DNA of 64,000 bases, taken from the sequence record PZ256263.1; one strand, written 5' to 3'. Below the pieces are notes generated by a model that had not been told where the DNA came from, made no database searches, and saw nothing but the letters and a program-made list of their open reading frames with translations. Position 1 is the first letter of the stretch. Each line of letters begins with the position of its first letter. The translations under genes and the position numbers were made by a program. The DNA comes from a phage. This document shows, in pieces, positions 34,135-48,100 of this stretch.

Positions 34135-37100
34135 TCACTCCTTAGGTCGAACTCTTACACGGAGTCTCGATTGACGCTTACTGCGTTCAAGCTTCTCTGA
34201 CAATGAGCCACGTTTAATCTTCGGCTTCCCTTCGTCATTAAACTTCTCCAAGAACTGCAAGTACTCAGTACGATTAGTTGTCTTGTAAGAAGGAATCTTA
34301 ATATCAGGGTTCTCTTCAATCACACGTCTAATCTTCGCTACATCATCCCTACCAAGCAACTTACTCTTAGCCTGTTCAGCTGTAGAACCAAAGATCTTCT
34401 CCAGTGCTCTGGATTTGTTACCACCTGCGGAAGAAGCACCAAGTTTAGCAATGGCAGAGTAATCATCAGCACTAAACCAAGCTACTGGATTATCACCATA
34501 CTTCTTCTTGTTTTCAGCAGCAGTCTGCAATGCACGTACAAATCGACGGTTGTTACCAGCCTTATCTGCACCATGAACCCTGTCTAAAACTTCAGCCACA
34601 CTAGCCAACTCATCCAAGCTCTTCCCACTCAAGAAAGCTTTCTCTACTTTATCAGCAAATACCTCTTCCTGTTGTTTAATGCTTTCCAAGATATCAGAAT
34701 TTGCTTGAGATCTTTCATCATCAGGCAGAGCAGAACGAATCTTCTCCATCTCCAACTCTTCCTCTTGCAGTTTCTTAATATCAGAGTCAACCTTCTGAGC
34801 CTCCTCAACAGCCTTCCTAGTATCCGCATCCAAGTTATCAAGCTTACCTTCAGTATCTCCAGTAACCTTAACAATCTCTTTCTCGATAGGAGTCATTGAT
34901 TCGTACTTCTTAGCAAACTTCTCAACATCAGCTTCGATACGAGAACGAGCATTCTGATGTTCAGTAGGAGTCATAGGCTTCTCAAGAAGTGCATAACGGT
35001 TATCCATATAGGAACCAGCAAATGCTTCAGCATCCTCTCTAGATATGCCCTTATCTTCCATAGTACGCATCAGGCGGCGATGAATGTCATCACGTTGACG
35101 TTGTACTGCCATAAGGTCATTCTCACGCTCTTGAGCTGCTTTAAGCTCTTCACTGCGCTTAACTCTCTTGTCCACATCAAACTTACGGTTCATCTCTTCC
35201 GCTTGCTCATACATCTTGTTCAACTTGGCCTGACGAGCATCTTCCTCTGCATCAGTTAAACGACGCTGACGATCAAGGTAATCTGACTCGGCGTTGTGGA
35301 TACGTTCAATATAACTACGGAACTTCTCTGGAGGAACTGGAGAGTTCTTGTCATGGTGAGCAGCCAACTGTTTCAATGTACGAGATTCCTGAGCCTCACG
35401 AACAGGTTTAGGTAAACCTTCCATCATCTTCTCAATCTCACTCTTCTGAGCTGCAATAGCCTCTAGAGTTTTACGTTCATTCTCAACAGCAGCCTTAGCA
35501 TCTGAACGAGCCTGAGCCTTTTTCCTGAGGGTAGCAAGACGTTCTTCACGAGCCTGTAAGTGCTTAGCAGCAGCTTCGTACTGAGAGTTCTTGTTAGCTT
35601 TGTTGAAGGCATTCACTTCTCTGTTGTAGGTGTTGATAAACCCATCCCAAATATCCTTCATCTGACCAACTTCCAAAGCCTCTTCCCTACCAGCCTTCTC
35701 TGAAGATTTAAACTTCCCATCTACAAAGTCATTCATCAGCTTACGCATAGCATCTTTCTGAGCAGGACGTAAAGGTTCTGAATCAATCAAAGTATCAATC
35801 TCAGACTGAAGCTCTTTCTTCTGGTCAACCAGTTTAGGAGCATCCTTCTTATCGAAAGCTTTGTTTTCTTCTAGAGCTTGTTGATACAGTCTATCAAACT
35901 CATCCTCACGCTGCTTCTGATACAACCTTTCAGCACGACGTTTCAGACTATCTAAGTTAGTTACGTTCCCACCTAAACCTTTCTCTTCAGCACGTAATGC
36001 CTTAGTAGCAATATCTTCTGGCAGACCACGTTCCTTAACCCATTCAGCAAAATTAGTTCGTACAGTGTTGTTCTTAGCAGTAGCAATACCTTGCTGAGAA
36101 GCCAGCTGGTTACGAGCCATTTCTTCATGACGTTCAGTGTTGATAGCATTATCTTCCTGACGAATACGACGCATCAATTCCTTAGGATCACCCTTATAAG
36201 CCAAGAAGTTTTCAGCAGTAGCCTTAGCCTTAGCAGCCTTAGAGTACAGAGAACGAGCAAAACGTTCTGCACGATCTTTAGTAGCCTGACGAGCAGCACT
36301 AGACATAGCAGCTAAACGTTCTACACCACTTGCCGGTTTAACGTCCTGTACAGCTTCCTTAGGAGCTTTAGGAGCACGGGCAGGTAATGGCTCAGCTTTG
36401 ACTGTTGGTTCCTCTACGGTAGGTTCTGGAGCCTGTGCGGCCTCTTCTTGAGCACGTTGCTGTTCCATTGCACGACGCTCCTCTAAAGGGTTACGAGCAG
36501 GGAGAGGTTCAGCCTGTGGAGCTTGTTCGACCGGAGCTTCTTGAGCAGCTGCTGCCTCTTCTTCAGCGCGACGCTGTTCAGCCTGACGGATAGCACGTCT
36601 TTGCGCAACTAAATCACGAGCTGTGAGAGAAGTTTCTTGAGGAGCAGAAGAAGGAAGATTTTCTTCCGTCACAGTACTAGAAGAAGGCTCCCGAACCGGT
36701 TCGGTTTCCACGTCATTTTGCGTCTTAAATTTAATGTCATCAACAACTGGTTCTTCTTCCATCTTAGCACGAGCTTCATCAGCAGTAGACTTAGCACGAG
36801 CAACTTCCAAATCACCACGAGCCAGAGAGCGGATAGCTTCACTGTTAGACTCTTGTTGCTTAACACGTTGAGAACGGGCACGCTGAGAAGAGAAGCGATT
36901 CAGAGCATACTTAGCAGCACCGAGAGTGTTCATTACCAGGCTAGGTGAAGAAGCCTCACGGAATCCATCATCAGTCAGGGAAGTCCAACCACGATCTTGG
37001 TTACTCATAAACTTAGCCGTATTGTTCAGAGTGTAAGCATCTTGGATAGGATTAAAACCTTCAGGCATACCTTTCAGTTTCTTCAACCCACCAATAGCTT

Positions 37101-38556
37101 TCTTCATCTCTGGAGAAACATTATCAGCCATCTTCTGTAGTTCAGCAGCTTTCTCTACAAAGTTATTAAAGTCTTCACCATCACGAGCTTTGAATCGATT
37201 TGCTTCATTGTAGAAAGTCTTGTAAGCATCAATGAAATCACGGTCGGCTTGTGTACGGTTCTTAATATCAATTGGACTACCAGTAAAATCACCAGAAGCT
37301 CGGAGAGAAGTTAATTCACGGTCTAGGTTATCTAGAACATCTGTAAGAGCTTTCGTGTTGTCTTTGGTGTAGTCAGCCATTGCATCCTTCATAGCAACAG
37401 CCTGCTTCTGGTTGTGCTCATTATCAGCAAATGCTTTACCACGAGTCTTAGCAGGAGAAGCTAAAGGATTAAGGCCCGGAATGTTGGAATGTTCTTTCTG
37501 AACAGAAGCAGCTTTCTCAGCACGAGCTTGGTCAGTATTAAGAATACGCTGAGCAGCAGGAGAATCCACAGCAACAGCATCTGTAATACGGAATCCATTC
37601 TCATCCAGAAGATTCAGAGCAGAAGCAGCGTTAGCAGTTTCAGCTTTAGAGTAAGCTTCTTTCAGTTCATCAATGTTCTTAGCACTACGAATTAGTTCAT
37701 CATCAGCAGCAATATCAGTCTTCGCATACTCTGGAGTATTCTTGAAGACAGCAGAATCCGGACGGCTAATCAATCCATGAACCCCACCAACTGCACCACC
37801 GAATGCAGCACCCATAGCACCTTCTTCGATAGCACCTTCTAATACATTAGCAAAGGTTGTGTCATCTCCGTGCTTATTCTGAGCTTCAGCAGCACCTACA
37901 AGAGCACCACCTTTAGCACCAGCCACTGCGTTACTAGCAACGTTCTGACCAATACGTCCAAGTGTGGACTCAGCTGTACCAACAGCACCCGGAAGGATTC
38001 TCTGAGCCGCATAGTTAGCACCACCAACTAAGGCTGCATCTAGAATAGACTTATCTTCTCCCTCTTCAGGGGTTTGGTCTGCATATGCGCGACCTGTCTC
38101 ACGACCTGCTATGATAGCAGCAGCAGCCAATGGGTTAGCAACTGTCAAACCGATATCACCAGCAACGCCAGCATACTGACCGACAGTTTTACCAATCCCA
38201 TCCTCAATCTTATCCATACGTTCTTTCAGAAGGTTCTGAGAGTTCTCTTGGATACGCTTACCATAACTAGTCTGTGCTCCAGCTAGATTCTCACCAATCT
38301 CAACTAAACCACCAATACCTTTAGCAGCACTAGCTGCAATGTTTGCACCACCGGATTGAAGAGCATTTGACACACCTTGAGCAAACTCACCTATAGCACC
38401 ACGTTCTTCTTGTTGTGGTTGTGCTACTGGTTGTTCCTCAGGAATAGAGCCACCTGCTGCCTTATATTGTTCTCTCATTTGAGCTTGTTGCTCCGGAGAG
38501 GCATTCAGATACGCAGGAGCTTTGGAAGCTTCTTCCCACGGTTTAATGTTAGCCAT
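34135..38556 (-). CDS. very large internal virion/ejection protein (about 1473 aa)
   Basis: Track ORF 34135-38601; start moved to ATG at 38556 (MANIKPW) with GGAGA upstream because the track ATG lies inside the promoter motif; coiled-coil and Gly-rich segments. Confidence 0.7.
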   Translation of the reverse strand: MANIKPWEEASKAPAYLNASPEQQAQMREQYKAAGGSIPEEQPVAQPQQEERGAIGEFAQGVSNALQSGGANIAASAAKGIGGLVEIGENLAGAQTSYGKRIQENSQNLLKERMDKIEDGIGKTVGQYAGVAGDIGLTVANPLAAAAIIAGRETGRAYADQTPEEGEDKSILDAALVGGANYAAQRILPGAVGTAESTLGRIGQNVASNAVAGAKGGALVGAAEAQNKHGDDTTFANVLEGAIEEGAMGAAFGGAVGGVHGLISRPDSAVFKNTPEYAKTDIAADDELIRSAKNIDELKEAYSKAETANAASALNLLDENGFRITDAVAVDSPAAQRILNTDQARAEKAASVQKEHSNIPGLNPLASPAKTRGKAFADNEHNQKQAVAMKDAMADYTKDNTKALTDVLDNLDRELTSLRASGDFTGSPIDIKNRTQADRDFIDAYKTFYNEANRFKARDGEDFNNFVEKAAELQKMADNVSPEMKKAIGGLKKLKGMPEGFNPIQDAYTLNNTAKFMSNQDRGWTSLTDDGFREASSPSLVMNTLGAAKYALNRFSSQRARSQRVKQQESNSEAIRSLARGDLEVARAKSTADEARAKMEEEPVVDDIKFKTQNDVETEPVREPSSSTVTEENLPSSAPQETSLTARDLVAQRRAIRQAEQRRAEEEAAAAQEAPVEQAPQAEPLPARNPLEERRAMEQQRAQEEAAQAPEPTVEEPTVKAEPLPARAPKAPKEAVQDVKPASGVERLAAMSSAARQATKDRAERFARSLYSKAAKAKATAENFLAYKGDPKELMRRIRQEDNAINTERHEEMARNQLASQQGIATAKNNTVRTNFAEWVKERGLPEDIATKALRAEEKGLGGNVTNLDSLKRRAERLYQKQREDEFDRLYQQALEENKAFDKKDAPKLVDQKKELQSEIDTLIDSEPLRPAQKDAMRKLMNDFVDGKFKSSEKAGREEALEVGQMKDIWDGFINTYNREVNAFNKANKNSQYEAAAKHLQAREERLATLRKKAQARSDAKAAVENERKTLEAIAAQKSEIEKMMEGLPKPVREAQESRTLKQLAAHHDKNSPVPPEKFRSYIERIHNAESDYLDRQRRLTDAEEDARQAKLNKMYEQAEEMNRKFDVDKRVKRSEELKAAQERENDLMAVQRQRDDIHRRLMRTMEDKGISREDAEAFAGSYMDNRYALLEKPMTPTEHQNARSRIEADVEKFAKKYESMTPIEKEIVKVTGDTEGKLDNLDADTRKAVEEAQKVDSDIKKLQEEELEMEKIRSALPDDERSQANSDILESIKQQEEVFADKVEKAFLSGKSLDELASVAEVLDRVHGADKAGNNRRFVRALQTAAENKKKYGDNPVAWFSADDYSAIAKLGASSAGGNKSRALEKIFGSTAEQAKSKLLGRDDVAKIRRVIEENPDIKIPSYKTTNRTEYLQFLEKFNDEGKPKIKRGSLSEKLERSKRQSRLRVRVRPKE

Positions 38557-38594
38557 AACGTCTCCTTTTATAAATAAAAATGTCCTACCCCCTA

Positions 38595-38603
38595 TATACA
38601 TTA
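38595..38603 (-). promoter_or_regulatory. TAATGTATA motif, candidate promoter for the large ejection-protein gene
   Basis: Minus strand reads ctaTAATGTATAtag, about 28 nt upstream of AGGAG and ATG 38556. Confidence 0.5.
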
Positions 38604-38623: not shown

Positions 38624-40279
38624 TTATTGCGTGAACCAGCTAGTGTCTTCGACAGCTGATAAAGCACCGTTCAGTTTAGGATTGGTTGCTGCACCACCAA
38701 CTGCTTCTTCTGCTTGTTCAGAGAAAACACCTAGAGGGTCATAGAAACCACCAGAAGGGATTGCACGGTTAACCAATGCAGTAGCTCTCTTCTTATCCAT
38801 ACCAGAACCGATGTACGCTTCGATAGTAGCTCTCTTAGCATCAGCAACACCTTTCATTGCAGAGGTGTGACCAACGTTAGCTTGCTTACGAGCATAAGCA
38901 AGAGCAGAATCAGTAGGACGCCATCCAGATTTCAGTGCAAACTTGTTGCCAACACGAACGAAGATTGATGGGTCTTCTGCAAAGTGCCCCAAGTCTTCTT
39001 CGGTAAGAGAACGAGTAGCACCGATTTCAGCTCTTGCGGAGTTCATGATAGCTTGCATGTAAGCAGAACGAGCTGTCTGATAGTCTTTATCTTTAACCGC
39101 TTTGTCAGCCAAATCCAAATCTTTGTTGGACTGGTTAAACAGACCACCTTTCTCTGCCCACTGCTTAGCAACTGTACCTTCAGCTGTGTTCTGAGCAAGA
39201 CGAACTTCTTTAGGGTTAAAGTTAAAACTCTGAGCAGCTTGTTCAGCACGTTCAGCCTTAACTTTATCACGATAACCAATCAACTCTTTCTGACGTTCAA
39301 AGTTCATGTTAGCTCTTTCTTCAGCGGCACGACGAGTTTCATCAGCACGCTCACGCATAGTTTGCTCTTGAATCTGTTGACGTCTATCCCATTCAGCATT
39401 TTGTCGTTCTTCACGAGCAGCATACAGCGCTTCTTTCTGAGCAGGGTCTACAGCTCTCATCTTCAGTAGAGAAGGGTCTCCGTTAGCAATAGCAGCTGCG
39501 ATCGAGTCTTGAGAGAAGCCTTGTTCAATCAGAGCATCACGGTTAGCTTCCAGTTGCTTCTTAGTCTCATCTTGATTAGCCATTCCCTGACCAATCTGGA
39601 AAGCTTCAATAGGAGATTTACCTGACATAATGGAAAGACCTACACCCATCAAACCTGTGTAGAAACTAGAGTTCTGATAGAATGGTTCTTTCTGTAGCTT
39701 GTTCCAAGCTTCCGAAGGGTCTTTAGCTTTCGCAACTTGCAAGATATCATTGTTAACACGTTCCTGATCTTTAGCACGAGTAGCAGCAGCCATTCCATCA
39801 CCAGTATCTTGTCCTTGAGCAAGAGTATTAATCACACCTTGTGCCTGTTCCACCTGAGAAGGAGTAAACTCCATAGGACCAGCTTCTAACGGTTTAGTAG
39901 GAGGTGTTACCGGAAGAGGGTCACTAGGCATAAGCCCAGCATCCTGTAAACCTTGATCAGTGGATAGGTTAGGGTTAGACGCTACAGGGGCCGGTGCTCC
40001 AATATCAATACCCTGAAGACTGGTAGGAGTCCCTTGATTCTGCTGTTCCATAAGACGTTGCTGGAATCCCGGATTAACCATAGCATTCTGATCTTCTTCT
40101 GCCTGAGAGACAAGACCCGCAAGAGATGAAGGTACAGCAGGACGTTGATACATAGAAATATCTGCTGTCTGAGTTGGTCTAGCCATATAAGGAGAGGCCG
40201 AAGCCGCTCCCGGATTAACACCATAGAAAGTATTTCTCGGGTCACGACTTCTGACCTGAGCGTAAGTTGTCTGTTGCAT
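38624..40279 (-). CDS. internal virion protein
   Basis: Track ORF 551 aa; position in the ejection block. Confidence 0.6.
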   Translation of the reverse strand: MQQTTYAQVRSRDPRNTFYGVNPGAASASPYMARPTQTADISMYQRPAVPSSLAGLVSQAEEDQNAMVNPGFQQRLMEQQNQGTPTSLQGIDIGAPAPVASNPNLSTDQGLQDAGLMPSDPLPVTPPTKPLEAGPMEFTPSQVEQAQGVINTLAQGQDTGDGMAAATRAKDQERVNNDILQVAKAKDPSEAWNKLQKEPFYQNSSFYTGLMGVGLSIMSGKSPIEAFQIGQGMANQDETKKQLEANRDALIEQGFSQDSIAAAIANGDPSLLKMRAVDPAQKEALYAAREERQNAEWDRRQQIQEQTMRERADETRRAAEERANMNFERQKELIGYRDKVKAERAEQAAQSFNFNPKEVRLAQNTAEGTVAKQWAEKGGLFNQSNKDLDLADKAVKDKDYQTARSAYMQAIMNSARAEIGATRSLTEEDLGHFAEDPSIFVRVGNKFALKSGWRPTDSALAYARKQANVGHTSAMKGVADAKRATIEAYIGSGMDKKRATALVNRAIPSGGFYDPLGVFSEQAEEAVGGAATNPKLNGALSAVEDTSWFTQ

Positions 40280-40292
40280 ATTTATCTCCTAA

Positions 40293-41261
40293 TTAAGTAC
40301 TAGCCAACCCACCGATTACACCCCCAGCTAATGCACCCCAAGGCCCAAAGGAAGAGCCAGCTGCTGCACCACTCATAGTTCCACCAAGGAAACCACCTTT
40401 GCCACCAGATGTTTTAGTAGTTGTAGTTTGTCCGAGAGCACCGTTAAGTACACCTGCTGCACCGAGTTGGTTATTGATATCTTGCCATCCCCAATTAGCT
40501 GCGTTCTGAGCATTCTGGTAGGCATTATCATATTCATTCTGTTGTTGCTGTTGTTGCTGCAACCCTGCATTCCATTGATTCATTATTTGCTGTTGAGACA
40601 AATTAGCACCCTGCTGACCTAGGTTAGAAAGGTTAGAACCAATATTAGAAAGACCAGAGAGAGCAGCTGCCTGATTCTGTCTATTACCAGAGAGGATGCT
40701 TTCAGCTTGGCTAATAGCCGAGTTATAGGCACTATTGGTAATATCTGTTGCTTGGCCTTGCATCTGATTCAGAGCATCACCTTGGGCAAAAGACTTAGCC
40801 ATACGAGCACCTGAACCTTGTTGACCAGCATACTGTTGAGCTAACTGAGGAAGAGCATTACGTGCCAAGTTCTGTTGAACCTGTTCATTATTAGCTGTAA
40901 TGGCTGCTTGCACAGCGTCATCATCATACAGTTGACCAGCGAGAGCACCAATCTGTTCTCCAGTAATCCCACCTTGTCCAGAGAGGCTCTGATAGCCTTT
41001 ATAGGCATTATCCAGATACCCTAACCCTTGACCTGCTGCATCCATGTATTGCTGTGAGAGAGTGCCTAAAGCGCCAGATTGTGCTAGGTTATTAAGTGCC
41101 TCTGTCTGATTATTATTAAACCCTACATTGTCACGATAAACATAATCCCCTGAACTAGTATTACCAATCTGTTGGTTAAGCTGGTCAATATACTGTTGAA
41201 TGTATTCAGGGCGAATCATTTGGGAAGTAGTTTTACTACCCCCGCCTCCGAAAAGTCCCAT
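40293..41261 (-). CDS. Gln/Asn/Gly-rich virion protein with C-terminal glycine-zipper segment, paralog 1
   Basis: Track ORF 322 aa; QQQQQQ run, NWGWQDINNQLGAAG, C-terminal GGFLGGTMSGAAAGSSFGPWGALAGGVIGGLAST. Confidence 0.6.
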   Translation of the reverse strand: MGLFGGGGSKTTSQMIRPEYIQQYIDQLNQQIGNTSSGDYVYRDNVGFNNNQTEALNNLAQSGALGTLSQQYMDAAGQGLGYLDNAYKGYQSLSGQGGITGEQIGALAGQLYDDDAVQAAITANNEQVQQNLARNALPQLAQQYAGQQGSGARMAKSFAQGDALNQMQGQATDITNSAYNSAISQAESILSGNRQNQAAALSGLSNIGSNLSNLGQQGANLSQQQIMNQWNAGLQQQQQQQNEYDNAYQNAQNAANWGWQDINNQLGAAGVLNGALGQTTTTKTSGGKGGFLGGTMSGAAAGSSFGPWGALAGGVIGGLAST

Positions 41262-41273
41262 ATCAAATCTCCT

Positions 41274-42326
41274 TTAGTTTGCTCCAAATGCCCCTAAGAC
41301 ACCACCTAAGATATTACTACCTGCTGTGGATAACCAGTTAGACTGACCTTTCTGTTGAGAAAGGTTAGAACCTCCAATCATAGGACCAGCCATTCCAGAT
41401 TGCCCACCTGAGTTGTTATAGGAACTCCAAGCATTCTGAGTCTGTTGGTTAGGAGAGAAAGCACCCATACGACCTGCAATACCTAATCCAGTGATACCAG
41501 CACCTAGGAGCTGTTGTCCAGTATTAACCCCCGGAGCAGCATTCTTAATCGTGTACCCAGCCATTGGGCTTACACTATTTAATACATTAAGTTGGTTGTT
41601 AAGCTGATTCCACCCATACTGTTGAGAGCCAATAGCGTTCTGCCAATTAATATCAGCTTGAGCTTGGGCTTGTTGCTGTTGTAGATTACCAGCCATGAGT
41701 TGATTCTGGATAGCTTGTTGAGTTGCCTGAACACCTTGAGCACCAAGATTGAGATTCTGTCCAGCCAATCCTGACTGAGCACCAAGTAAGCCCCTCTGGA
41801 AGTTTTGGTCTTGTTGAAGAGCACTGATTCCCATATTCTTGCCACTGATAGTACGAGCTAAGTTTGTATTAGCACTGTTCAGAGCAGCACCTTGAGCAGC
41901 AGCTCTACGGAGAGAACCTGAATCAGAACCATTTCCGAGGGATACATTGGAAGCTGCTTTGCTAGTAGCTTGTGCAAGGGCTGAGTTATTCAAACCTTTA
42001 CTAAAGTTATTAACCCCTTCAGCTGTTACTCCACCACCATTGACAATATTCTGATACTGCTGTGCAAGAGAGTTTAATTGGTCCAACCCTTGCTGTGTAC
42101 GAGGCGTGTACATATCAGCCAATTGCTTCTGAGTAGTAGAAGCTGCTAAGTTGTTCAGAGCACCCTGTTGGTTGCCATTAAACCCAGCCAGTTGTTGGGA
42201 GATGAATCCCGGATCGTTGTTCTGCATATTCTGAGCATTAGCAACAATCTGCTTCAGCAGGGCATCAACCTGAGAGGAAGGGGCCACTGTGGTTTTGCTA
42301 GAAGCTGATTTTCCAAATAAAGACAT
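41274..42326 (-). CDS. Gln/Asn/Gly-rich virion protein with C-terminal glycine-zipper segment, paralog 2
   Basis: Track ORF 350 aa; LQQQQAQAQADINWQNAIGSQQYGWNQLNNQL parallels the 40293 ORF. Confidence 0.6.
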   Translation of the reverse strand: MSLFGKSASSKTTVAPSSQVDALLKQIVANAQNMQNNDPGFISQQLAGFNGNQQGALNNLAASTTQKQLADMYTPRTQQGLDQLNSLAQQYQNIVNGGGVTAEGVNNFSKGLNNSALAQATSKAASNVSLGNGSDSGSLRRAAAQGAALNSANTNLARTISGKNMGISALQQDQNFQRGLLGAQSGLAGQNLNLGAQGVQATQQAIQNQLMAGNLQQQQAQAQADINWQNAIGSQQYGWNQLNNQLNVLNSVSPMAGYTIKNAAPGVNTGQQLLGAGITGLGIAGRMGAFSPNQQTQNAWSSYNNSGGQSGMAGPMIGGSNLSQQKGQSNWLSTAGSNILGGVLGAFGAN

Positions 42327-42345
42327 AAGTCCTCCTTAAAGATTA

Positions 42346-43128
42346 TTACTTTACACCAATGCTAGCCAGACGTCTGAGCACTGCTTGTGTTTGTGGACTG
42401 TACTGAGAACCTGCTGCATGTGGTGCACTTGCCCTCTGAACTGTTTGAGAAGTGGGAGGTTTACCAGCAAGCATAGCAGCTACCCCTAATACTGCATTAC
42501 CAAAGTTCTGTTGAGGTTTCTGATTTTCGCCTTCCTGCACTTCATCAGAGTAAAACTCTACTGGATTTCCACCTAAAGCACCTGTCTTAGAAGCAGCAAT
42601 CTCTGCCTGAGTTGGAGCTTGTGCGGCCTTCTCTCTATCTAACAAGTCAGGACTAAACTGATTGACTGGTTGAACAGCTTGCAAAGCTCCAACAGGGTTA
42701 GCAATCTGAGAAGCTGCATCACCATAGAAAGGAAGAAAGTGTTTGTTGTTCATTGAGTCAAGGGCTTGAGGTGTAAATCCCTTTTTACCAGCGAACATTT
42801 GCTTAGCACCACCGATACCTTCTGAGTAACCAACCATTGCTTTCTTAACATCACCATTAAAAGCCTTTAAGTTATCTCTAATATAACGAGCACCCATATC
42901 AATATTCTTTGCTGGGTCAAGTCTGTCTTCTAGTTTGTAACCGTAATCTTTAGCCAACCCTTTACTAATCTGCATTAAACCTACAGGACCAGTTCCAGAA
43001 GCCACTGTAGGACGACCACTAGACTCTCTTTGGATTACAGCATGAATCAAAGCAGCAGGAATCCCATACTTCTTTGAAGCCTGTTGAACCATTGGGTCTA
43101 GTTCTTCAATACCCATTCTAATTGACAT
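42346..43128 (-). CDS. lytic transglycosylase (SLT domain) virion protein
   Basis: Track ORF 260 aa; ESSGRPTVASGTGPVGLMQISKGLAKDYG matches the SLT catalytic motif. Confidence 0.8.
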   Translation of the reverse strand: MSIRMGIEELDPMVQQASKKYGIPAALIHAVIQRESSGRPTVASGTGPVGLMQISKGLAKDYGYKLEDRLDPAKNIDMGARYIRDNLKAFNGDVKKAMVGYSEGIGGAKQMFAGKKGFTPQALDSMNNKHFLPFYGDAASQIANPVGALQAVQPVNQFSPDLLDREKAAQAPTQAEIAASKTGALGGNPVEFYSDEVQEGENQKPQQNFGNAVLGVAAMLAGKPPTSQTVQRASAPHAAGSQYSPQTQAVLRRLASIGVK

Positions 43129-43137
43129 AATAACTCC

Positions 43138-44172
43138 TTATTGTATACTCCTGAATATTTTCCTAGCATCTAATATCGGAATGCTTAATCCGAGAGCACC
43201 ACCCCCTCCTAAATCATATTGACTACTCCAAGAGTAAATCATCCTTCCGAAACCTGTACCGAAAGAAGAGCCATTCATCATGTGAGATCTTGTGTGTTGA
43301 AAATACCAACCACTAGCCTTACCTCTTATTGCTCCAGCACCATAAGATAGAGGTATCATTGGATAGGCCAAAGATGTGTTACCACCACTCATAGGCATAA
43401 ATCCCTCAACATTAAAAGGGGTTCTATATGTAGAAAAAACACACTGAGACCCATTTGGAGAAAAGATATTTAAACCTCCATTGTGGGTTGGTACTCCCGA
43501 ACCATCACAGAAGACGGCAATCCTAACACCACCAATGTACCCTGTTTGGTTTGTGTTACCATTATCATGAGATCTGTTCTGGTACACATAAACAACCCTA
43601 TTAGATGGGTTGTATAGTAGCCCTGCTCCGCCGTTACTCCAATTCGCGTAGACAGTTGCTCGGCTCATGTCAAAACCACCAATATCTGGTATTTGAAGAG
43701 AACCGTTTATATCACCCTCCCAAGCCCAAATACATTGACCAACAACTCCAGAATCAGAGATTGAGAAATAGTCAGCAGAGTTGGAGAATGTGATTCCATA
43801 GTTCCTGTTAGCTCTAGGCCATATTTGATACACATTAAAAGCCATATCAAATACCCAACCATTTACGTTATAGTCCATAGTAACTCTGAAGGTTGAGTTA
43901 TTAATAACAGATATATCCGTTAGCCAATATACATCAGACGTTACATTAGGAGGTATATATCTCTCCCAAACAACAGACCCTGTTGGAACTACAACTATCT
44001 GACCACTACCATCCCAACCACTTATAGGCAAATCACAGGTATTTCCGCTAAAAGAGAAATTCCCACTGACTCTATTTCTGAGTTGAGGGAATGTGCTACC
44101 ACTATCAATATAAATATCAGCAGGGGCCGCTGGACCCGGACCAACCGGGCGTGTCCATATTCCATATGCCAT
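43138..44172 (-). CDS. virion structural protein
   Basis: Track ORF 344 aa; stop/start adjacency with flanking structural genes. Confidence 0.55.
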   Translation of the reverse strand: MAYGIWTRPVGPGPAAPADIYIDSGSTFPQLRNRVSGNFSFSGNTCDLPISGWDGSGQIVVVPTGSVVWERYIPPNVTSDVYWLTDISVINNSTFRVTMDYNVNGWVFDMAFNVYQIWPRANRNYGITFSNSADYFSISDSGVVGQCIWAWEGDINGSLQIPDIGGFDMSRATVYANWSNGGAGLLYNPSNRVVYVYQNRSHDNGNTNQTGYIGGVRIAVFCDGSGVPTHNGGLNIFSPNGSQCVFSTYRTPFNVEGFMPMSGGNTSLAYPMIPLSYGAGAIRGKASGWYFQHTRSHMMNGSSFGTGFGRMIYSWSSQYDLGGGGALGLSIPILDARKIFRSIQ

Positions 44173-44173
44173 G

Positions 44174-45142
44174 TTACCAACTCCCTATTCTTATGCGAAG
44201 AGTTCCACTCCCATCATAAAAATCTATTCTATTACCATTCATCCACAACTGAGAACCACCTGTACCACCCATAACAAAATCACCACCAACAGTAAGTCTC
44301 CAGTTAGAACCCCACATAGAACCAGCAGTGATTTTATCCGCTGATAAGTTCTGAATCTGAGCATTGGAGATGGATACGTTATCAATCTGTGCCCATTGGA
44401 TTCTAGCGTTAGCTATCTGAGCTGTTGTGATATTGACGTTCTTTATATCAGCAAACTCCATCCTAGCCCTACCACCCTCAAACACAAAAGGTGTGTTACC
44501 AGAGCTGCCATCACCAACAATAAACTTGTTAGCTGTTACTTGGAATTGACTGTTTGTTCCATTGTTAGTTAACTTGACCCCAGCATACCTTCCGTTGACT
44601 GTAGAGTTAACACCCCACGTAGCTTCATACTCAGAGAGTTTCATATACTGAGAGAGGCTTCCGTTGATATTTTGTAGTTCTGTCTGAACAAGAGCAATCT
44701 CTTGACCTTGATCATTAACAATACCTTCTACTGTCTGAATCTTAGTTGTGTTGCCTTCGATGCTAGTCTTAAAACCAGATACAGTGCTTTCTAGTTTTAC
44801 AGGAGGTTGAACAGAGTTATCCCAAATGTCCTCAGTGGACAGATTCCCCATCTGGGTTTGGATATCTGCAATAGCTGTTTCTATCTCTGTAGTAATTCTA
44901 TTCTCAAGCTCATCAAATTGAAGATTCATTGCATTAAGAGCTTTAATACGAACATCAATCTCTTCGTGAATTTCATCTATAGCTTGGAACATTTGGTTAG
45001 TAGCTGTGCTAACTTTTTGTAATTCATCATACACTGCTACGTTATATGTTTCTGTGTCCTGTACATTATTGAGAAACCCAACGTTGTACGGGAGTGTGGT
45101 GTTGTTGCGACCAGTGTTCTTACGAAAACCACCTGCACCCAT
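44174..45142 (-). CDS. tail fibre / host-recognition-like protein
   Basis: Start moved to internal ATG (residue 23 of track ORF) because a terminator hairpin and GGAGGAA lie upstream; C-terminal repeats NVNITTAQIANARIQWAQIDNVSISNAQIQ. Confidence 0.55.
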   Translation of the reverse strand: MGAGGFRKNTGRNNTTLPYNVGFLNNVQDTETYNVAVYDELQKVSTATNQMFQAIDEIHEEIDVRIKALNAMNLQFDELENRITTEIETAIADIQTQMGNLSTEDIWDNSVQPPVKLESTVSGFKTSIEGNTTKIQTVEGIVNDQGQEIALVQTELQNINGSLSQYMKLSEYEATWGVNSTVNGRYAGVKLTNNGTNSQFQVTANKFIVGDGSSGNTPFVFEGGRARMEFADIKNVNITTAQIANARIQWAQIDNVSISNAQIQNLSADKITAGSMWGSNWRLTVGGDFVMGGTGGSQLWMNGNRIDFYDGSGTLRIRIGSW

Positions 45143-45150
45143 AAGTTCCT

Positions 45151-45180
45151 CCAAAACAATAAAAGGGGCACGAAGCCCCT
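45151..45180 (-). terminator. stem-loop terminator after the large Ig-domain tail protein gene
   Basis: Minus RNA aggggc-uucgu-gccccu followed by uuuuauuguuuu, 5 nt after the stop at 45186. Confidence 0.55.
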
Positions 45181-45185
45181 TGTTG

Positions 45186-48100
45186 TTATCTCCGCCCGCC
45201 AACAGCAAACTCTATCGTTAAACCATTGATAGCAGCATTACTGTTAACATCATTATCTATAACATTATAGAAAAGGTATGGATGGTTCAGTCTCACCGAG
45301 ACATGCCTGTCAACACCGATCGTATATGTTTTAGATGTGTGTGGGTGTCCATATTCATTTGAGAATTGACTACCACCAGCTTCAAATATGTAAGTACCTG
45401 AACCAGTTGTCTGAGGTCGGAACCTGTTAATATGCTTCTGATTCCACTCATTCGTCACATTATCAAAATCTATACCAGTCCTCTCCAACCTCATTTCCAG
45501 AGGTTTCTCTATAACAACATCGTTTAGCCTGTCATAGAAATAATCAAGAGCGCCTACATCCACCTGATAGAATCCCTTCAAGAATGAACCTACTATCGTA
45601 ACCCTCTGTCTAAAGTTTGTTGCATCCTTTCTCCAAACGAGTTCTTTAATAGATGGGTCATCCCAAGTGATTTCTTGGAAGTCAGACCAGATTGGACCTC
45701 TTTCTAAAACAGGAGGATCAACCAGACCAATACACTGAGCATATGGGATAGTACGGAAAGACCAAGTATCAAACTCATAATTCCATACAGCAGCTTTAGT
45801 ACAAGCGAAGCTTTCTTTTGGCTCCCCCGGACCTACATACAGAACCCAAACTTCTTTCTTATCCTGATGCAAGTGTACTCGAGTTGCTAGAGGGTTAACC
45901 AGACACACCTCGTTAATCAGCATGTTTTTGACACGGTTAGATGCAATTGACTTCTTGGTTGCACCATTATGTAAGATCACATCGTTCTGAGTAACTACGA
46001 AGTGACTACCTTCTACTTCAACCACACACTCAGGAGCAAGGATACCAGAGTCGTTAAAGAGTTTCTTGAACATTAGAGGTTGGTACGTGTTATTAGTCGG
46101 AGAACCAATATACGTTTCAAACTCTGTATAAACAAACAAGTAGTCTTTAAGAGGTAGGATATCAATCAAGCTACCATTAGAATCTGCTAAGTCGATGTAA
46201 CCAGCATACCCATTCTCTAGAGCCTGAGTCTGCCCTACGATGTTAGAAGCTAAGTCCGAAGACACAACTCGATCATAGGCAAAGTCATCCCACAGTGTAG
46301 GAGCCTTGTTCTCGTTGGCAAAGTTAGACCAACGAAGACGAAGAGGGTAGTTAGTGGTAACACCAGAAGCATTAGCCTCTCTCATATTCAGAGCAAAAAG
46401 ACGGTTGTTAAAAGATCTTACTCTCTCACATTTCCAGTTAAACTTCTTGACTGAAGGGTTTCCATCATTATCAACAACTGTTTGCTCACCCCACCCCGGA
46501 AGGTCTACAAAGTATTCTGATTCGAATTCTTTTACCTGAGGAGTTTCATAGTGAGTTGTAGCAACTGCACAGTTAGAGATAACAGCGTGATACCAAGGGT
46601 AGTCATCAAAAGCATCGTAATCCTTCTGAGTCATCTGACTGACAGTACATGTTACGTTAATCTCTCCTTTACGAAGAGCAACCAGTTTGATAGATTTACC
46701 AGTAACTGAGGTTGTAGAAACATAACCAGTTTTATCAACAGACCACTGATAAGAGTACTCACCTTCTGGAGAAGCTGTGGCTGTAATGACAATCTCTTCA
46801 CCAACATCAAGAGAAGCGCTGACAATATCTAAGGTTACAGATGACAGAGGGGTTGCCAGTAAAGAAGCTCTTGCAAAACCTTCAATGTCATTCACGTTAG
46901 AGTAATCGTAGAAGTTATTACCTTCGTACATCCCTGACGTATCAATACCAGATGTAGGCTCAGCAAAATAAACCGTCTCTTCACTTTCAGGAGGAGTTAC
47001 TACTTCTTCCTCTTGAGTTTCTACTGACTCTGACACAGGAGCGGCAAATGCCATAGCACTTGTTCTCATTGTCCTTCCAGCTAAATCCACACGTACAGTA
47101 CAGACAGCAACTCTGCTACCTTCTTCAGTGGTAGCTGTAATCTCAGTAAAACCAGCAAGTAGAGCGTTGATCGTCCCTTGTGTGCCAGTCCCTGATACTG
47201 TTGCAATATTTGGATTAGAAGAGGTCCAAGTAATATTTTGATTAGGGGCGTTAGCAGGAGAAAGGGTAGCAGTTAAGATATACTGAGAACCTCTACTCAC
47301 AGTAACATCTGACTGGCTTAAAGAAATGCTATCAATCTGAGGGATAGAAACAACCTCACAAGAAGCAGTCTTAGTTCCGTTATCAGCAGTGATTGTTACG
47401 TTACCTTCTCCATTCGCTGTAATGACGGCAGTTAAAGAGTTGGCATTAGGGGTTACGGATACGATAGAAGCGTTATTGCTGGACCAAGTTACAGGAGTTT
47501 TGCCAGTAACAGCCGTGAGAGTAGTAGTCCCTCCTTTACGAATTGTAACAGTGTCTTGACTCAAGAAGATGCCTGAATCACCATCAATGATATTAACAGC
47601 AATCTGAGCCACTACGGATTCATTGGCAGTAGAGATAGTTACTACAAGATTACCCTCTTTCTCAAAAGATGTTAGAGTAGCAAGTTTAGAGTCACTAGGG
47701 TCTACCGTAACACTTCCATAGGCCGAGTTACTAACCTCCCAAATAAGATCAGTATTGTTAGCATCAGCAGGGAGAAGAGAAACCTCTAGATTCTTGGTCT
47801 GATTGAAGTTCATTGAGATAGTTGATTCTTTAGGAACGATCTGAGAAACAACTGGATAAATCTTAATTGAGGCAGAAGCCTTCTTAGTGACTGTAGCAAC
47901 CTTACGGCTAATATCAGTCAAGCTTTCATCTGTCAGTTTATATAACTTCTTATCCGTACCTACAACAAGAAAGCTATTACCTGCGCTATAATAATCGAAA
48001 GGCATAGAAACGAAAGACAGAGGGGTTAAATCCTTATCTTCATCTACATAAGAAAGAGGGGCATTGCCCCCCGTCTTAAATACTCTCTGCTCAACAAATC

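Follow-up and report, generated by a model that had tools for sequence, protein, structure and literature searches.

Two paralogous Gln/Asn-rich ejection proteins of a Kuravirus with glycine-rich hydrophobic tails, putative membrane-inserting subunits of the ejection channel

Ejection proteins are carried in the phage head, are expelled at infection and help the DNA cross the bacterial envelope. T7 gp14, DEV gp73 and P22 gp7 are small proteins of this kind that are packaged in the head, ejected first and equipped with hydrophobic segments; they form pores in the outer membrane and are encoded beside larger tunnel and inner-membrane proteins. For the Bruynogheviruses, Pa223 gp56 was proposed from bioinformatic prediction to serve the ejectosome as its channel through the outer membrane, in the manner of gp14, with predicted transmembrane segments at residues 278-291 and 296-311 and an AlphaFold3 model of a nonameric channel, and a separate tunnel protein, gp54, was resolved around the portal (bioRxiv 10.1101/2025.06.11.659172). 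The closest described system is the phage SU10. Mass spectrometry of SU10 virion preparations detected gp21 with 53% and gp22 with 49% coverage (PMC4281155). By SDS-PAGE and mass spectrometry, SU10 gp20-24 are in virions and are missing from genome-release intermediates, and the authors named them ejection proteins (Siborova et al., 2022, PMC9509320). For SU10 it was shown that these proteins are made late and packaged into the head together with the DNA, and that they leave by way of the tail nozzle after release of the needle. The SU10 virion map has no density assignable to gp21 or gp22, and an unassigned density lies inside the portal barrel (PMC9509320). In the published work on SU10 gp21 and gp22, we found neither a structure, a stoichiometry nor a specific role for either protein.

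The window analyzed here is the whole 64,000-nt stretch of sequence record PZ256263.1, and its phage is a Kuravirus, a phiEco32/SU10-like coliphage. Two adjacent genes, which we call A and B, encode proteins identical to SU10 gp22 at 320 of 322 positions (99.4%) and to SU10 gp21 at 341 of 350 positions (97.4%), respectively (Table 1). They are part of a five-gene ejection cassette with the order SLT-B-A-551-1473, in which the SLT gene is the first and its SU10 counterpart, gp20, is also an ejection protein (PMC9509320). This order, SLT-gp21-gp22-gp23-gp24 in SU10, is conserved, and nothing of substance differs from the SU10 pair (PMC9509320; Mirzaei et al., 2014, PMC4281155). The preliminary description of this locus had given the boundaries of two adjacent proteins of about 320-350 aa exactly, and had placed them correctly between the SLT protein and the large internal proteins. 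It also took both to be virion proteins with a plausible role in forming an ejection conduit across the envelope, naming absence from purified virions as the finding that would speak against this; the SU10 orthologs, 97.4-99.4% identical, are present in virions. Experiments on SU10 thus support two parts of this reading, presence in the virion and ejection, and a membrane-inserting, conduit-forming role is proposed in the literature as it is here. Since the virion and release data of SU10 gp20-24 are published for a near-identical phage, A and B are already known as ejection proteins. RefSeq records carry 'DNA ejection protein (x2)' for the SU10/phiEco32 pair, phiEco32 gp24, the ortholog of protein A, is annotated 'putative DNA injection protein', and a homolog in Privateer is annotated 'virion protein verified via mass spectrometry'.

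Genes A and B each have a strong Shine-Dalgarno site. An extended AAGGAG before gene A would take in the last base of the B stop codon. The listed reading frame of the giant ejection protein likely starts too early, with the true start at Met16 (position 38556), because the phrog_14629 match spans residues 16-1488. The 551-aa protein is a candidate component of the periplasmic tunnel, as judged by position and size only.

Table 1. Features of the ejection cassette in the window (PZ256263.1).
Feature	Coordinates	Strand	Description
Giant ejection protein	34135..38601	(-)	listed ORF 1488 aa; SU10 gp24 = 1473 aa
551-aa ejection protein	38624..40279	(-)	phrog_12130; SU10 gp23
Gene A	40293..41261	(-)	ORF, 322 aa; ejection protein, paralog of B; orthologous to SU10 gp22 and phiEco32 gp24
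Glycine-zipper hairpin of A	40302..40406	(-)	residues 286-320; GxxxG x4, Pro307, GxxxG x2
W-x-x-[IL]-N-N-Q-L motif of A	40464..40487	(-)	WQDINNQL, residues 259-266
Q7 tract of A	40539..40559	(-)	residues 235-241
Shine-Dalgarno, gene A	41269..41273	(-)	AGGAG, 7 nt upstream of ATG, directly past B stop codon
Gene B	41274..42326	(-)	ORF, 350 aa; ejection protein, paralog of A; orthologous to SU10 gp21 and phiEco32 gp23
C-terminal Gly-rich hydrophobic segment of B	41277..41336	(-)	residues 331-350, WLSTAGSNILGGVLGAFGAN
First Gly-rich hydrophobic segment of B	41457..41513	(-)	residues 272-290, QLLGAGITGLGIAGRMGAF
W-x-x-[IL]-N-N-Q-L motif of B	41589..41612	(-)	WNQLNNQL, residues 239-246
Q4 tract of B	41670..41681	(-)	residues 216-219
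Shine-Dalgarno, gene B	42331..42337	(-)	AAGGAGG, 4 nt upstream of ATG
SLT lytic transglycosylase	42346..43128	(-)	260 aa; PF01464 E 1.2e-23; phrog_12507; SU10 gp20

BLASTP with composition adjustment aligned A and B with 30% identity over 309 aa (E 5e-13). A profile-profile comparison gave a probability of 100% and an E-value of 2e-50, a score that is slightly circular because profile A1 contains protein A. Each protein consists of about 25% Q+N and 36% G+A+S, and a likeness between two unrelated Gln/Asn/Gly-rich proteins might arise from such a composition. Shuffles that preserve composition argue against this: the real pair has a Smith-Waterman score of 275, whereas 500 global shuffles gave 93 +/- 12.5 (z 14.5) and shuffling inside blocks of 30 aa gave 105 +/- 13 (z 12.7). 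Moreover, A and B align collinearly from their first residue onward and have the N-terminal MxLFG, the W-x-x-[IL]-NNQL segment and the zipper positions in common, and both proteins match one PHROG, phrog_4287 'DNA ejection protein' (residues 1-310 of A, E 6.3e-109; residues 1-350 of B, E 6.6e-118). A compositional artefact, to which we give practically no weight, is rejected by BLASTP, by the profile-profile comparison and by the shuffle tests. On these comparisons A and B are true, ancient paralogs, and the paralogy claimed in the preliminary description holds.

The Gln/Asn-rich composition and poly-Q tracts reported earlier were also found. Q and N together account for 25.2% of A and 26.6% of B, and A has a Q3 run in addition to the tracts in Table 1. 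Charged residues make up 8.7% of A and 6.6% of B. A common W segment does exist in both proteins, but the glutamine that had been assigned to its second position is found in A only; because B reads WNQLNNQL, the common motif is W-x-x-[IL]-N-N-Q-L and not W-Q-x-[IL]-N-N-Q-L. In A, the motif closes the last of the long predicted helices, and its columns are conserved in homolog alignments. Alignment A1 shows no variation at W239 and N244 of B.

Structure prediction gave AlphaFold2 monomers with mean pLDDT values of 36 for A (25 sequences) and 42 for B (22-sequence alignment). The models are unusable except for their secondary structure, which contains predicted helices of 50-60 residues. Full-length A and B had no match in Pfam. 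The PDB search with the family profile returned no chain at E<=10, and that with the single sequences returned two chance-level matches only, giving A and B no sequence relative among structurally characterized ejection proteins such as T7 gp14, DEV gp73 and P22 gp7. In a heptad test of the long helices, only the helix at about residues 63-96 was significant, with a period of 3.55-3.60 and 0 of 500 permutations reaching its value. The other helices gave 0.04-0.24, and the long helices had no clear heptad signal.

The two C-terminal tails are glycine-rich and hydrophobic, with segments of the GxxxG type. The zipper of A is regular, running G290-G294-G298-G302-G306, then P307, then G309-G313-G317, and the hairpin stops 2 residues short of the C-terminus. 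Among 25 homologs of 37-84% identity, G290, G294, G298, G302, P307, G313 and G317 never vary, and conservation is >=90% at G306 and G309. The tail of B is less regular, with LLGAGITGLGIAGRMGAF (273-290), a C-terminal NILGGVLGAFGA and few strict GxxxG repeats. Residues 272-290 of B align with residues 290-311 of A (hhalign), making this segment the positional homolog of the first zipper arm of A; G275, G277, L281, G282, G285, G288 and F290 are conserved in >=90% of the aligned sequences. The second segment of B, 331-350, follows a Q/N/G/S-rich linker of about 40 aa which is absent from A. On the Kyte-Doolittle scale, the most hydrophobic 19-residue window of A averages 0.94 and that of B, in residues 272-290, averages 1.16, and neither tail reaches the threshold of a classical alpha-helical transmembrane segment (a mean of about 1.6 or more). 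The Pfam glycine-zipper families resemble the tail of A in their arrangement of GxxxG repeats, a turn and further GxxxG repeats, but they belong to a bacterial lipoprotein context whereas A is a phage internal protein, and all scores are sub-threshold: 15.8 bits for PF05433 Glycine zipper 2TM (gathering threshold 24.2) and 14.6 bits for PF13441 YMGG-like Gly-zipper (gathering threshold 28.9). The relative P0137 scored 21.5 bits with PF13488 Gly-zipper_Omp, also sub-threshold, and the tail of B had no match in the Pfam glycine-zipper families. The GxxxG-type segments that had been pointed out before are therefore real, but calling them typical of membrane-inserting helices was an overstatement, given the hydrophobicity below threshold and the sub-threshold Pfam scores.

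At E<=1e-3, the phrog_4287 family numbers at least 670 cluster representatives, and it joins the ejection cassettes of Kuravirus, Grimontviridae, Lahexavirus and Bruynoghevirus. In distant relatives, A-type and B-type lineages occur on the same contigs with the pair and the cassette order kept, as in the relative L003 (SLT-333-322-490-1108). LUZ24 gp53 matches phrog_4287 with E 2e-10 in collinear fashion. Its match to the A-type profile scores 23.4 bits and runs collinearly through positions 101-320. When A or B was compared with LUZ24 gp53 directly by BLASTP, there was no match. Bridging proteins match both phrog_4287 and phrog_7477; tblastn of one of them, P0210, against phage genomes gave no match. 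By gene order and the matching 313/505/1055-aa sizes, LUZ24 gp53 is the ortholog of Pa223 gp56. On this profile evidence, the phrog_4287 family is homologous to LUZ24 gp53/Pa223 gp56. The Bruynoghevirus proteins (phrog_7477) are, like A and B, virion proteins of similar size (313 aa) with a GSxR(A)G motif and an end of the form ...TTSSGGGGG plus a Gly-rich hydrophobic hairpin, and they are encoded upstream of ejection proteins of about 500 and 1000 aa. Unlike A and B, they are single-copy and lack a neighboring SLT gene. BLASTP detected no similarity between LUZ24 gp51 and gp50 and the 551-aa and 1473-aa proteins of the Kuravirus.

Other relatives are fusions of 700-1600 aa, in which the A/B-type module is N-terminal to a cell-wall hydrolase (SLT, Hydrolase_2 or Peptidase_M15_4) and large C-terminal regions are added. 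These fusions tie the module functionally to envelope penetration. The tape-measure and pb2-type proteins of long-tailed phages are ejected and channel-forming. The giant fusions resemble them in the helical region, the Gly-rich hydrophobic segments and the muralytic domain, but no homology was detected outside the lysin domains, and the relatives of A and B are head-packaged proteins of podoviruses. The C-terminal halves of the giant fusions may be homologous to the 551-aa protein, but the data are suggestive only. This protein contains a short AGLGxMxGxSP...IGxG motif common to those C-terminal parts. It was the sole match of an 80-column motif HMM among the 425 ORFs of the window (E 2.2e-4), with the motif having been picked after it was seen. 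Pairwise matches span 27-49 aa (E 7e-4 and 5e-3), and a 340-column profile of the C-terminal halves did not match the 551-aa protein, also with the filters off.

The fusions also bear on whether A and B are part of a conduit. As a passive internal core or filler, they would organize DNA or buffer pressure and leave with the DNA. Their low-complexity, Gln/Asn-rich composition, the lack of resolved density in SU10 (PMC9509320) and the lack of an enzymatic or Pfam domain agree with such a role. We regard it as very improbable in view of the strict conservation of the zipper and other motifs over homologs of 37-84% identity, the conserved position beside the lysin, and the repeated fusion of the module to peptidoglycan hydrolases.

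We infer that A and B are most likely membrane-inserting subunits of the ejection channel. Each would consist of about 270 residues of long, polar, Gln/Asn-rich and weakly charged helices followed by the C-terminal Gly-rich hydrophobic hairpin. After ejection, the helical part would refold and oligomerize, possibly as a mixed A/B ring. The glycine-zipper hairpins at the free C-terminus would pack helix to helix and insert into a host membrane, forming the membrane-proximal section of the DNA conduit. Meanwhile the SLT enzyme would cut the peptidoglycan, and the 551-aa and 1473-aa proteins would build the periplasmic and inner-membrane parts. We consider this sequence of refolding, oligomerization, hairpin insertion and conduit formation by the paralogous pair probable. 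The homology to the Bruynoghevirus protein proposed as a gp14-like outer-membrane channel strengthens the conduit role, and it makes the outer membrane a more likely target than the inner one. A and B differ from T7 gp14, DEV gp73 and P22 gp7 in being about twice their size, in forming a paralogous pair and in having a glycine zipper in place of a classical hydrophobic helix; those proteins are pore-forming, and pore activity of A and B is putative.

The size of A and B, about twice that of T7 gp14-type proteins as also noted for Pa223 gp56 (bioRxiv 10.1101/2025.06.11.659172), leads to a different placement. The ejected proteins might instead make up the tunnel across the periplasm or the end of the conduit at the inner membrane, or the two paralogs might be split between the two membranes. 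The helical region of about 250 residues with helices of 50-60 residues far exceeds the need of a membrane pore, the tails differ between a tight hairpin in A and two segments about 40 residues apart in B, and the module is N-terminal to the cell-wall hydrolase in the fusion relatives. The Bruynoghevirus homolog, however, is the only small membrane-type protein beside the separate tunnel protein gp54, and the Kuravirus 551-aa and 1473-aa proteins are available for the tunnel and inner-membrane roles. We find this placement rather unlikely.

In the single-copy relatives of phages 7-11, GAP52, Privateer and Aeromonas 4_4572, a Peptidase_S74 domain is right behind the glycine zipper. The S74 domain (PF13884) scored 37.9, 28.7, 24.8 and 23.7 bits in relatives (cutoff 22), always starting at HMM position 1, and it is also present in 7 of the 34 giant fusions. 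A and B themselves lack it in the Pfam search. In the alignment, the S74 cleavage motif of the relatives comes directly after the zipper hairpin of A, and the A-type proteins stop 2-7 residues ahead of the predicted SDxx[LM]K cleavage site of those relatives. As judged by domain matches, the family shows a modular logic in which a predicted helical module is followed by a glycine zipper and then by either an S74 domain or a cell-wall hydrolase with a giant C-terminal part.

In endosialidases and tail fibres, Peptidase_S74 aids trimer folding and is then auto-cleaved. The relatives of A and B have the SDxxxK Ser-Lys spacing of this domain, and cleavage there is predicted. We know of no previous description of an S74 domain in ejection proteins. 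It is conceivable, though we hold it only tentatively, that the Gly-rich membrane-active hairpin needs a free C-terminus, which single-copy members would make by self-cleavage of the appended S74 domain, and that the Kuraviruses have lost this chaperone and duplicated the gene. The single-copy members meant here are those of 7-11, GAP52, Privateer, the Aeromonas phages and many metagenomic phages, and the Kuraviruses would directly encode the 'pre-cleaved' form, in which A and B might assemble together. Exposing a Gly-rich hydrophobic terminus by proteolysis resembles, as an analogy and no more, the way in which class I viral fusion proteins are primed.

Self-cleavage of S74 on an ejection protein would imply a pre-ejection fold templated as a trimer. 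A and B might be trimeric, rod-like internal or plug proteins, similar to an ejected needle or coiled coil, whose Gly-rich end acts as a membrane-destabilizing tip like a fusion peptide, with no ring channel. An intramolecular chaperone right behind the module in relatives and the unassigned density inside the SU10 portal barrel (PMC9509320) are consistent with this, as is the position in 7-11 corresponding to the phiEco32 gp20 needle gene, where no gene of that type is annotated (that position only). Periodicity confined to the helix at about 63-96 (3.55-3.60), long helices with no clear heptad signal, the lack of S74 in Kuravirus A and B and the nonameric AlphaFold3 channel model of the homolog Pa223 gp56 (bioRxiv 10.1101/2025.06.11.659172) point the other way, and we judge a trimeric rod improbable.

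In the literature on these ejection proteins, we found nothing on the two being paralogs, on a glycine zipper or on a connection with S74. The new elements are the paralogy, the large linking family and its modular logic, which we did not find described. If the self-cleavage reading is true, it would be the first case of a tail-fibre maturation device on an ejection protein. How short-tailed phages cross two membranes is little understood beyond the T7, P22 and N4-like models. Both Kuraviruses and Bruynogheviruses are in use, or under consideration, as therapeutic phages. For the membrane-insertion step, a concrete and testable handle is now available in the C-terminal zipper and its maturation.

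Kuraviruses, among them FS2B, SU10, and phiEco32, match the region at 95-98% DNA identity. Protein A shares 320 of its 322 residues with SU10 gp22 (phiEco32 gp24, "putative DNA injection protein") and protein B 341 of 350 with SU10 gp21 (phiEco32 gp23); both belong to phrog_4287 "DNA ejection protein" (E ~1e-109 for A and ~1e-118 for B). Mass spectrometry of SU10 preparations found orthologs of both (Mirzaei et al., 2014, PMC4281155). By SDS-PAGE and mass spectrometry, SU10 gp20-24 and the needle gp18 were in virions and absent from genome-release intermediates, and gp20-24, for which there was no assignable density, were termed ejection proteins, with the role of lengthening the nozzle through the periplasm (Siborova et al., 2022, PMC9509320). 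A 2023 Kuravirus survey restates this account, adding no detail. The preliminary description had proposed virion proteins forming an envelope-spanning ejection conduit. The presence of the orthologs in SU10 virions agrees with the first part, and their loss on genome release supports ejection; conduit formation is a predicted role, strengthened by the Bruynoghevirus homology described below. A and B are very probably ejected virion proteins, and at the level originally stated this finding is already known from the literature.

Features of the A/B locus and its flanks in PZ256263.1
Feature	Position	Strand	Length	Remarks
Terminator-like hairpin	38616-38582	-	15-bp stem	followed by T-run; between the 551-aa protein stop (38624) and the giant-gene start
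Probable giant-gene start	38556	-		Met16 of the 1488-aa ORF
A	40293-41261	-	322 aa	M-(G/S)-L-F-G N-terminus at 41250-41261
B	41274-42326	-	350 aa	M-(G/S)-L-F-G N-terminus at 42315-42326
SLT lytic transglycosylase	42346-43128	-	260 aa	PF01464, E 1.2e-23; upstream of B on the coding strand
DUF6453 protein	43138-44172	-	344 aa	phrog_1265 "membrane protein"; SU10 gp19
Tail needle homolog	44174-45208	-	344 aa as listed	TTG start; SU10 gp18 (322 aa; PF09327 Phage_Tail_Tip)

A strong ribosome-binding site precedes each of A and B, and the gaps to neighbouring genes are only 12-19 nt. The ORF order confirms the described position between the SLT protein and the large internal proteins, with 551-aa and 1488-aa proteins encoded downstream of A. 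The giant gene start is placed at Met16 because residue 16 of the ORF is where both the PHROG and the SU10 protein begin. The hairpin ahead of it could attenuate read-through, so that less of the giant ejection protein would be made. The family match of the needle homolog begins at residue 23, so an internal Met is probably its real start. The DUF6453 gene separates the needle gene from the ejection cassette, and its SU10 homolog is listed as undetected in virions.

A and B align collinearly from residue 1 with 30% identity over 309 residues (composition-adjusted E 5e-13). Because they share a biased composition (Gln+Asn ~25% and Gly+Ala+Ser ~36% in both), the alignment was tested against shuffled sequences. 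The real pair had a Smith-Waterman score of 275, whereas global shuffles averaged 93 ± 12.5 (z 14.5) and shuffling inside 30-residue blocks gave 105 ± 13 (z 12.7), which excludes a compositional artefact. Profile-profile comparison of the two lineages, slightly circular as A itself is in one profile, gave a probability of 100% and E 2e-50. The two proteins are thus paralogs, as had been suggested, and the duplication is old since A-type and B-type homologs occur on the same contigs. The poly-Q tracts noted earlier were confirmed: A contains Q7 and Q3, and B contains Q4. The motif described for the pair also exists, as W-x-x-[IL]-N-N-Q-L (WQDINNQL in A, WNQLNNQL in B), but the Gln assigned to its second position is not common to both. 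Kuravirus-type A and B keep their M-(G/S)-L-F-G N-termini, followed by a Thr/Ser-rich stretch. At least 90% of the B-type sequences (alignment A1) have L3 and F4, and most A-type sequences start with MGLFG, while distant relatives retain only a K-T-T-(S/T) stretch. As a lead, the influenza HA2 fusion peptide also starts with GLFG.

The A tail is a glycine zipper (G290, 294, 298, 302, 306, Pro307, G309, 313, and 317) stopping two residues short of the C-terminus, and across 25 homologs of 37-84% identity most zipper positions are invariant and the remainder at least 90% conserved. In B, a first arm (272-290) homologous to that of A is followed by a Q/N/G/S-rich stretch of ~40 residues and a second Gly-rich hydrophobic segment at the extreme C-terminus. 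The tails had been described as GxxxG-type membrane helices; the zipper is indeed regular in A, but neither tail reaches classical transmembrane hydrophobicity (best 19-residue Kyte-Doolittle means of 0.94 for A and 1.16 for B). The A tail is sub-threshold on the Pfam glycine-zipper families PF05433 (15.8 bits) and PF13441 (14.6 bits). As a further lead, the A tail (GFLGGTMSGAAAGS) may resemble the HIV gp41 fusion peptide.

Word-indexed searches found ~50 relatives per paralog, and a profile run exhaustively over 1.84 billion cluster representatives gave at least 670 proteins at E≤1e-3, with 106 at E≤1e-10. Proteins of ~300-360 aa end in the Gly-rich hydrophobic tail, as A and B do. In those of ~375-460 aa the zipper leads straight into a Peptidase_S74 domain (PF13884), known from endosialidases and tail fibres as an intramolecular chaperone. 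Proteins of 700-1600 aa have the helical region and tail as an N-terminal module before a long C-terminal region; 7 of 34 such fusions contain S74, and some contain Hydrolase_2, SLT, or Peptidase_M15_4. That other phages have repeatedly fused this module to cell-wall hydrolases supports its involvement in penetrating the envelope. That A and B are passive filler is highly improbable given the sequence conservation and the fusions. In the uncultured 61-kb phage MW202675 (L005, 8986-12543), the 1185-aa "internal virion protein D" comprises a phrog_4287/6121 module (1-345), an SLT domain (597-716), and a long C-terminal part, joining in one polypeptide at least the module and SLT functions, whereas Kuraviruses encode these separately. 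Comparison of the 551-aa protein with the C-terminal parts of giant fusions reached significance only for a short motif chosen post hoc.

Two copies without S74 occur in Kuraviruses and in the distant relative L003, which preserves the gene order SLT-333-322-490-1108. L003 is a 59.9-kb Logan contig with SU10-type capsid and portal and with Endonuclease_7 and HNH_2 domain genes. Salmonella 7-11, Cronobacter GAP52, Proteus Privateer, and Aeromonas 4_4572 have one S74-bearing copy each, and the Privateer homolog bears the annotation "virion protein verified via mass spectrometry". A and B match these single-copy proteins directly, at E values as low as 2e-18. In 7-11 (L004, 7750-9224), the nozzle homolog and a 74-aa ORF immediately precede the single "DNA injection protein"; no needle (phiEco32 gp20-type), DUF6453, or SLT gene lies between nozzle homolog and injection protein, so the cassette organisation is unlike that of Kuraviruses. 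Two A-type homologs (P0095 and P0091) carry Enterobacter cloacae and E. mori labels, and one of them lies on a contig of 317 kb; bacterial assemblies might contain or accompany a Kuravirus-like element (prophage, carrier state, or contamination).

Bruynoghevirus Pa223 has a proposed three-part ejectosome, in which gp56 (313 aa), modelled by AlphaFold3 as a hollow nonamer and predicted to have transmembrane segments at 278-291 and 296-311, is the proposed gp14-like outer-membrane channel; gp54 (505 aa), resolved around the portal, is the periplasmic tunnel, and gp53 (1055 aa) a proposed inner-membrane complex (2025 preprint, bioRxiv 10.1101/2025.06.11.659172). We equated LUZ24 gp53 with Pa223 gp56 on the grounds of gene order and of sizes that agree (313/505/1055 aa). 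LUZ24 gp53 defines phrog_7477, yet matches phrog_4287 collinearly (E 2e-10) and scores 23.4 bits on the A-type profile; several intermediate proteins match both PHROGs. These matches make A and B distant homologs of a putative outer-membrane channel. The downstream Kuravirus proteins had no detectable similarity to LUZ24 gp51 and gp50, so for them the analogy is one of order and size only.

SU10 ejection proteins were shown to be packaged in the head and to leave with the genome (Siborova et al., 2022, PMC9509320). After tail passage, the polar helical part of ~270 residues would refold and oligomerise, and the free C-terminal zipper hairpin would enter a host membrane, most likely the outer one. 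Opening the peptidoglycan would be the task of the SLT enzyme, and the 551-aa and 1473-aa proteins would complete the conduit. Secondary structure was taken from low-confidence models of A and B, whose monomer models were otherwise unusable; one strongly amphipathic helix lies at ~residues 63-96. No solved structure is related by sequence to A or B. As the best explanation, zipper-mediated insertion with an outer-membrane preference is reasonably likely, and a firm assignment to the outer membrane is less likely than not. A site of action at the periplasm or inner membrane is a less likely alternative, as is a split of tasks between A and B.

PF13884 scores in relatives were 37.9, 28.7, 24.8, and 23.7 bits (cutoff 22), always with HMM position 1 first; the 7-11 protein scored 20.5 bits against the same cutoff. 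This chaperone is suggestive of a trimeric rod, but heptad periodicity gives no clear support, and we consider it quite improbable that A and B are rods or fusion-peptide-like proteins. An SDxx[LIVFM]K site occurs in 26 of the best 150 relatives, at residues 283-384 in 24 of them. In a local alignment, the SDxx[LM]K motif of S74-bearing relatives lies 2-7 residues past the end of A-type proteins, so that A resembles the predicted mature product of such precursors. Self-cleavage in those relatives would follow from the established behaviour of the domain elsewhere. Worth following up are the possible maturation of the glycine-zipper tail through S74 and the homology to the proposed Bruynoghevirus channel protein.
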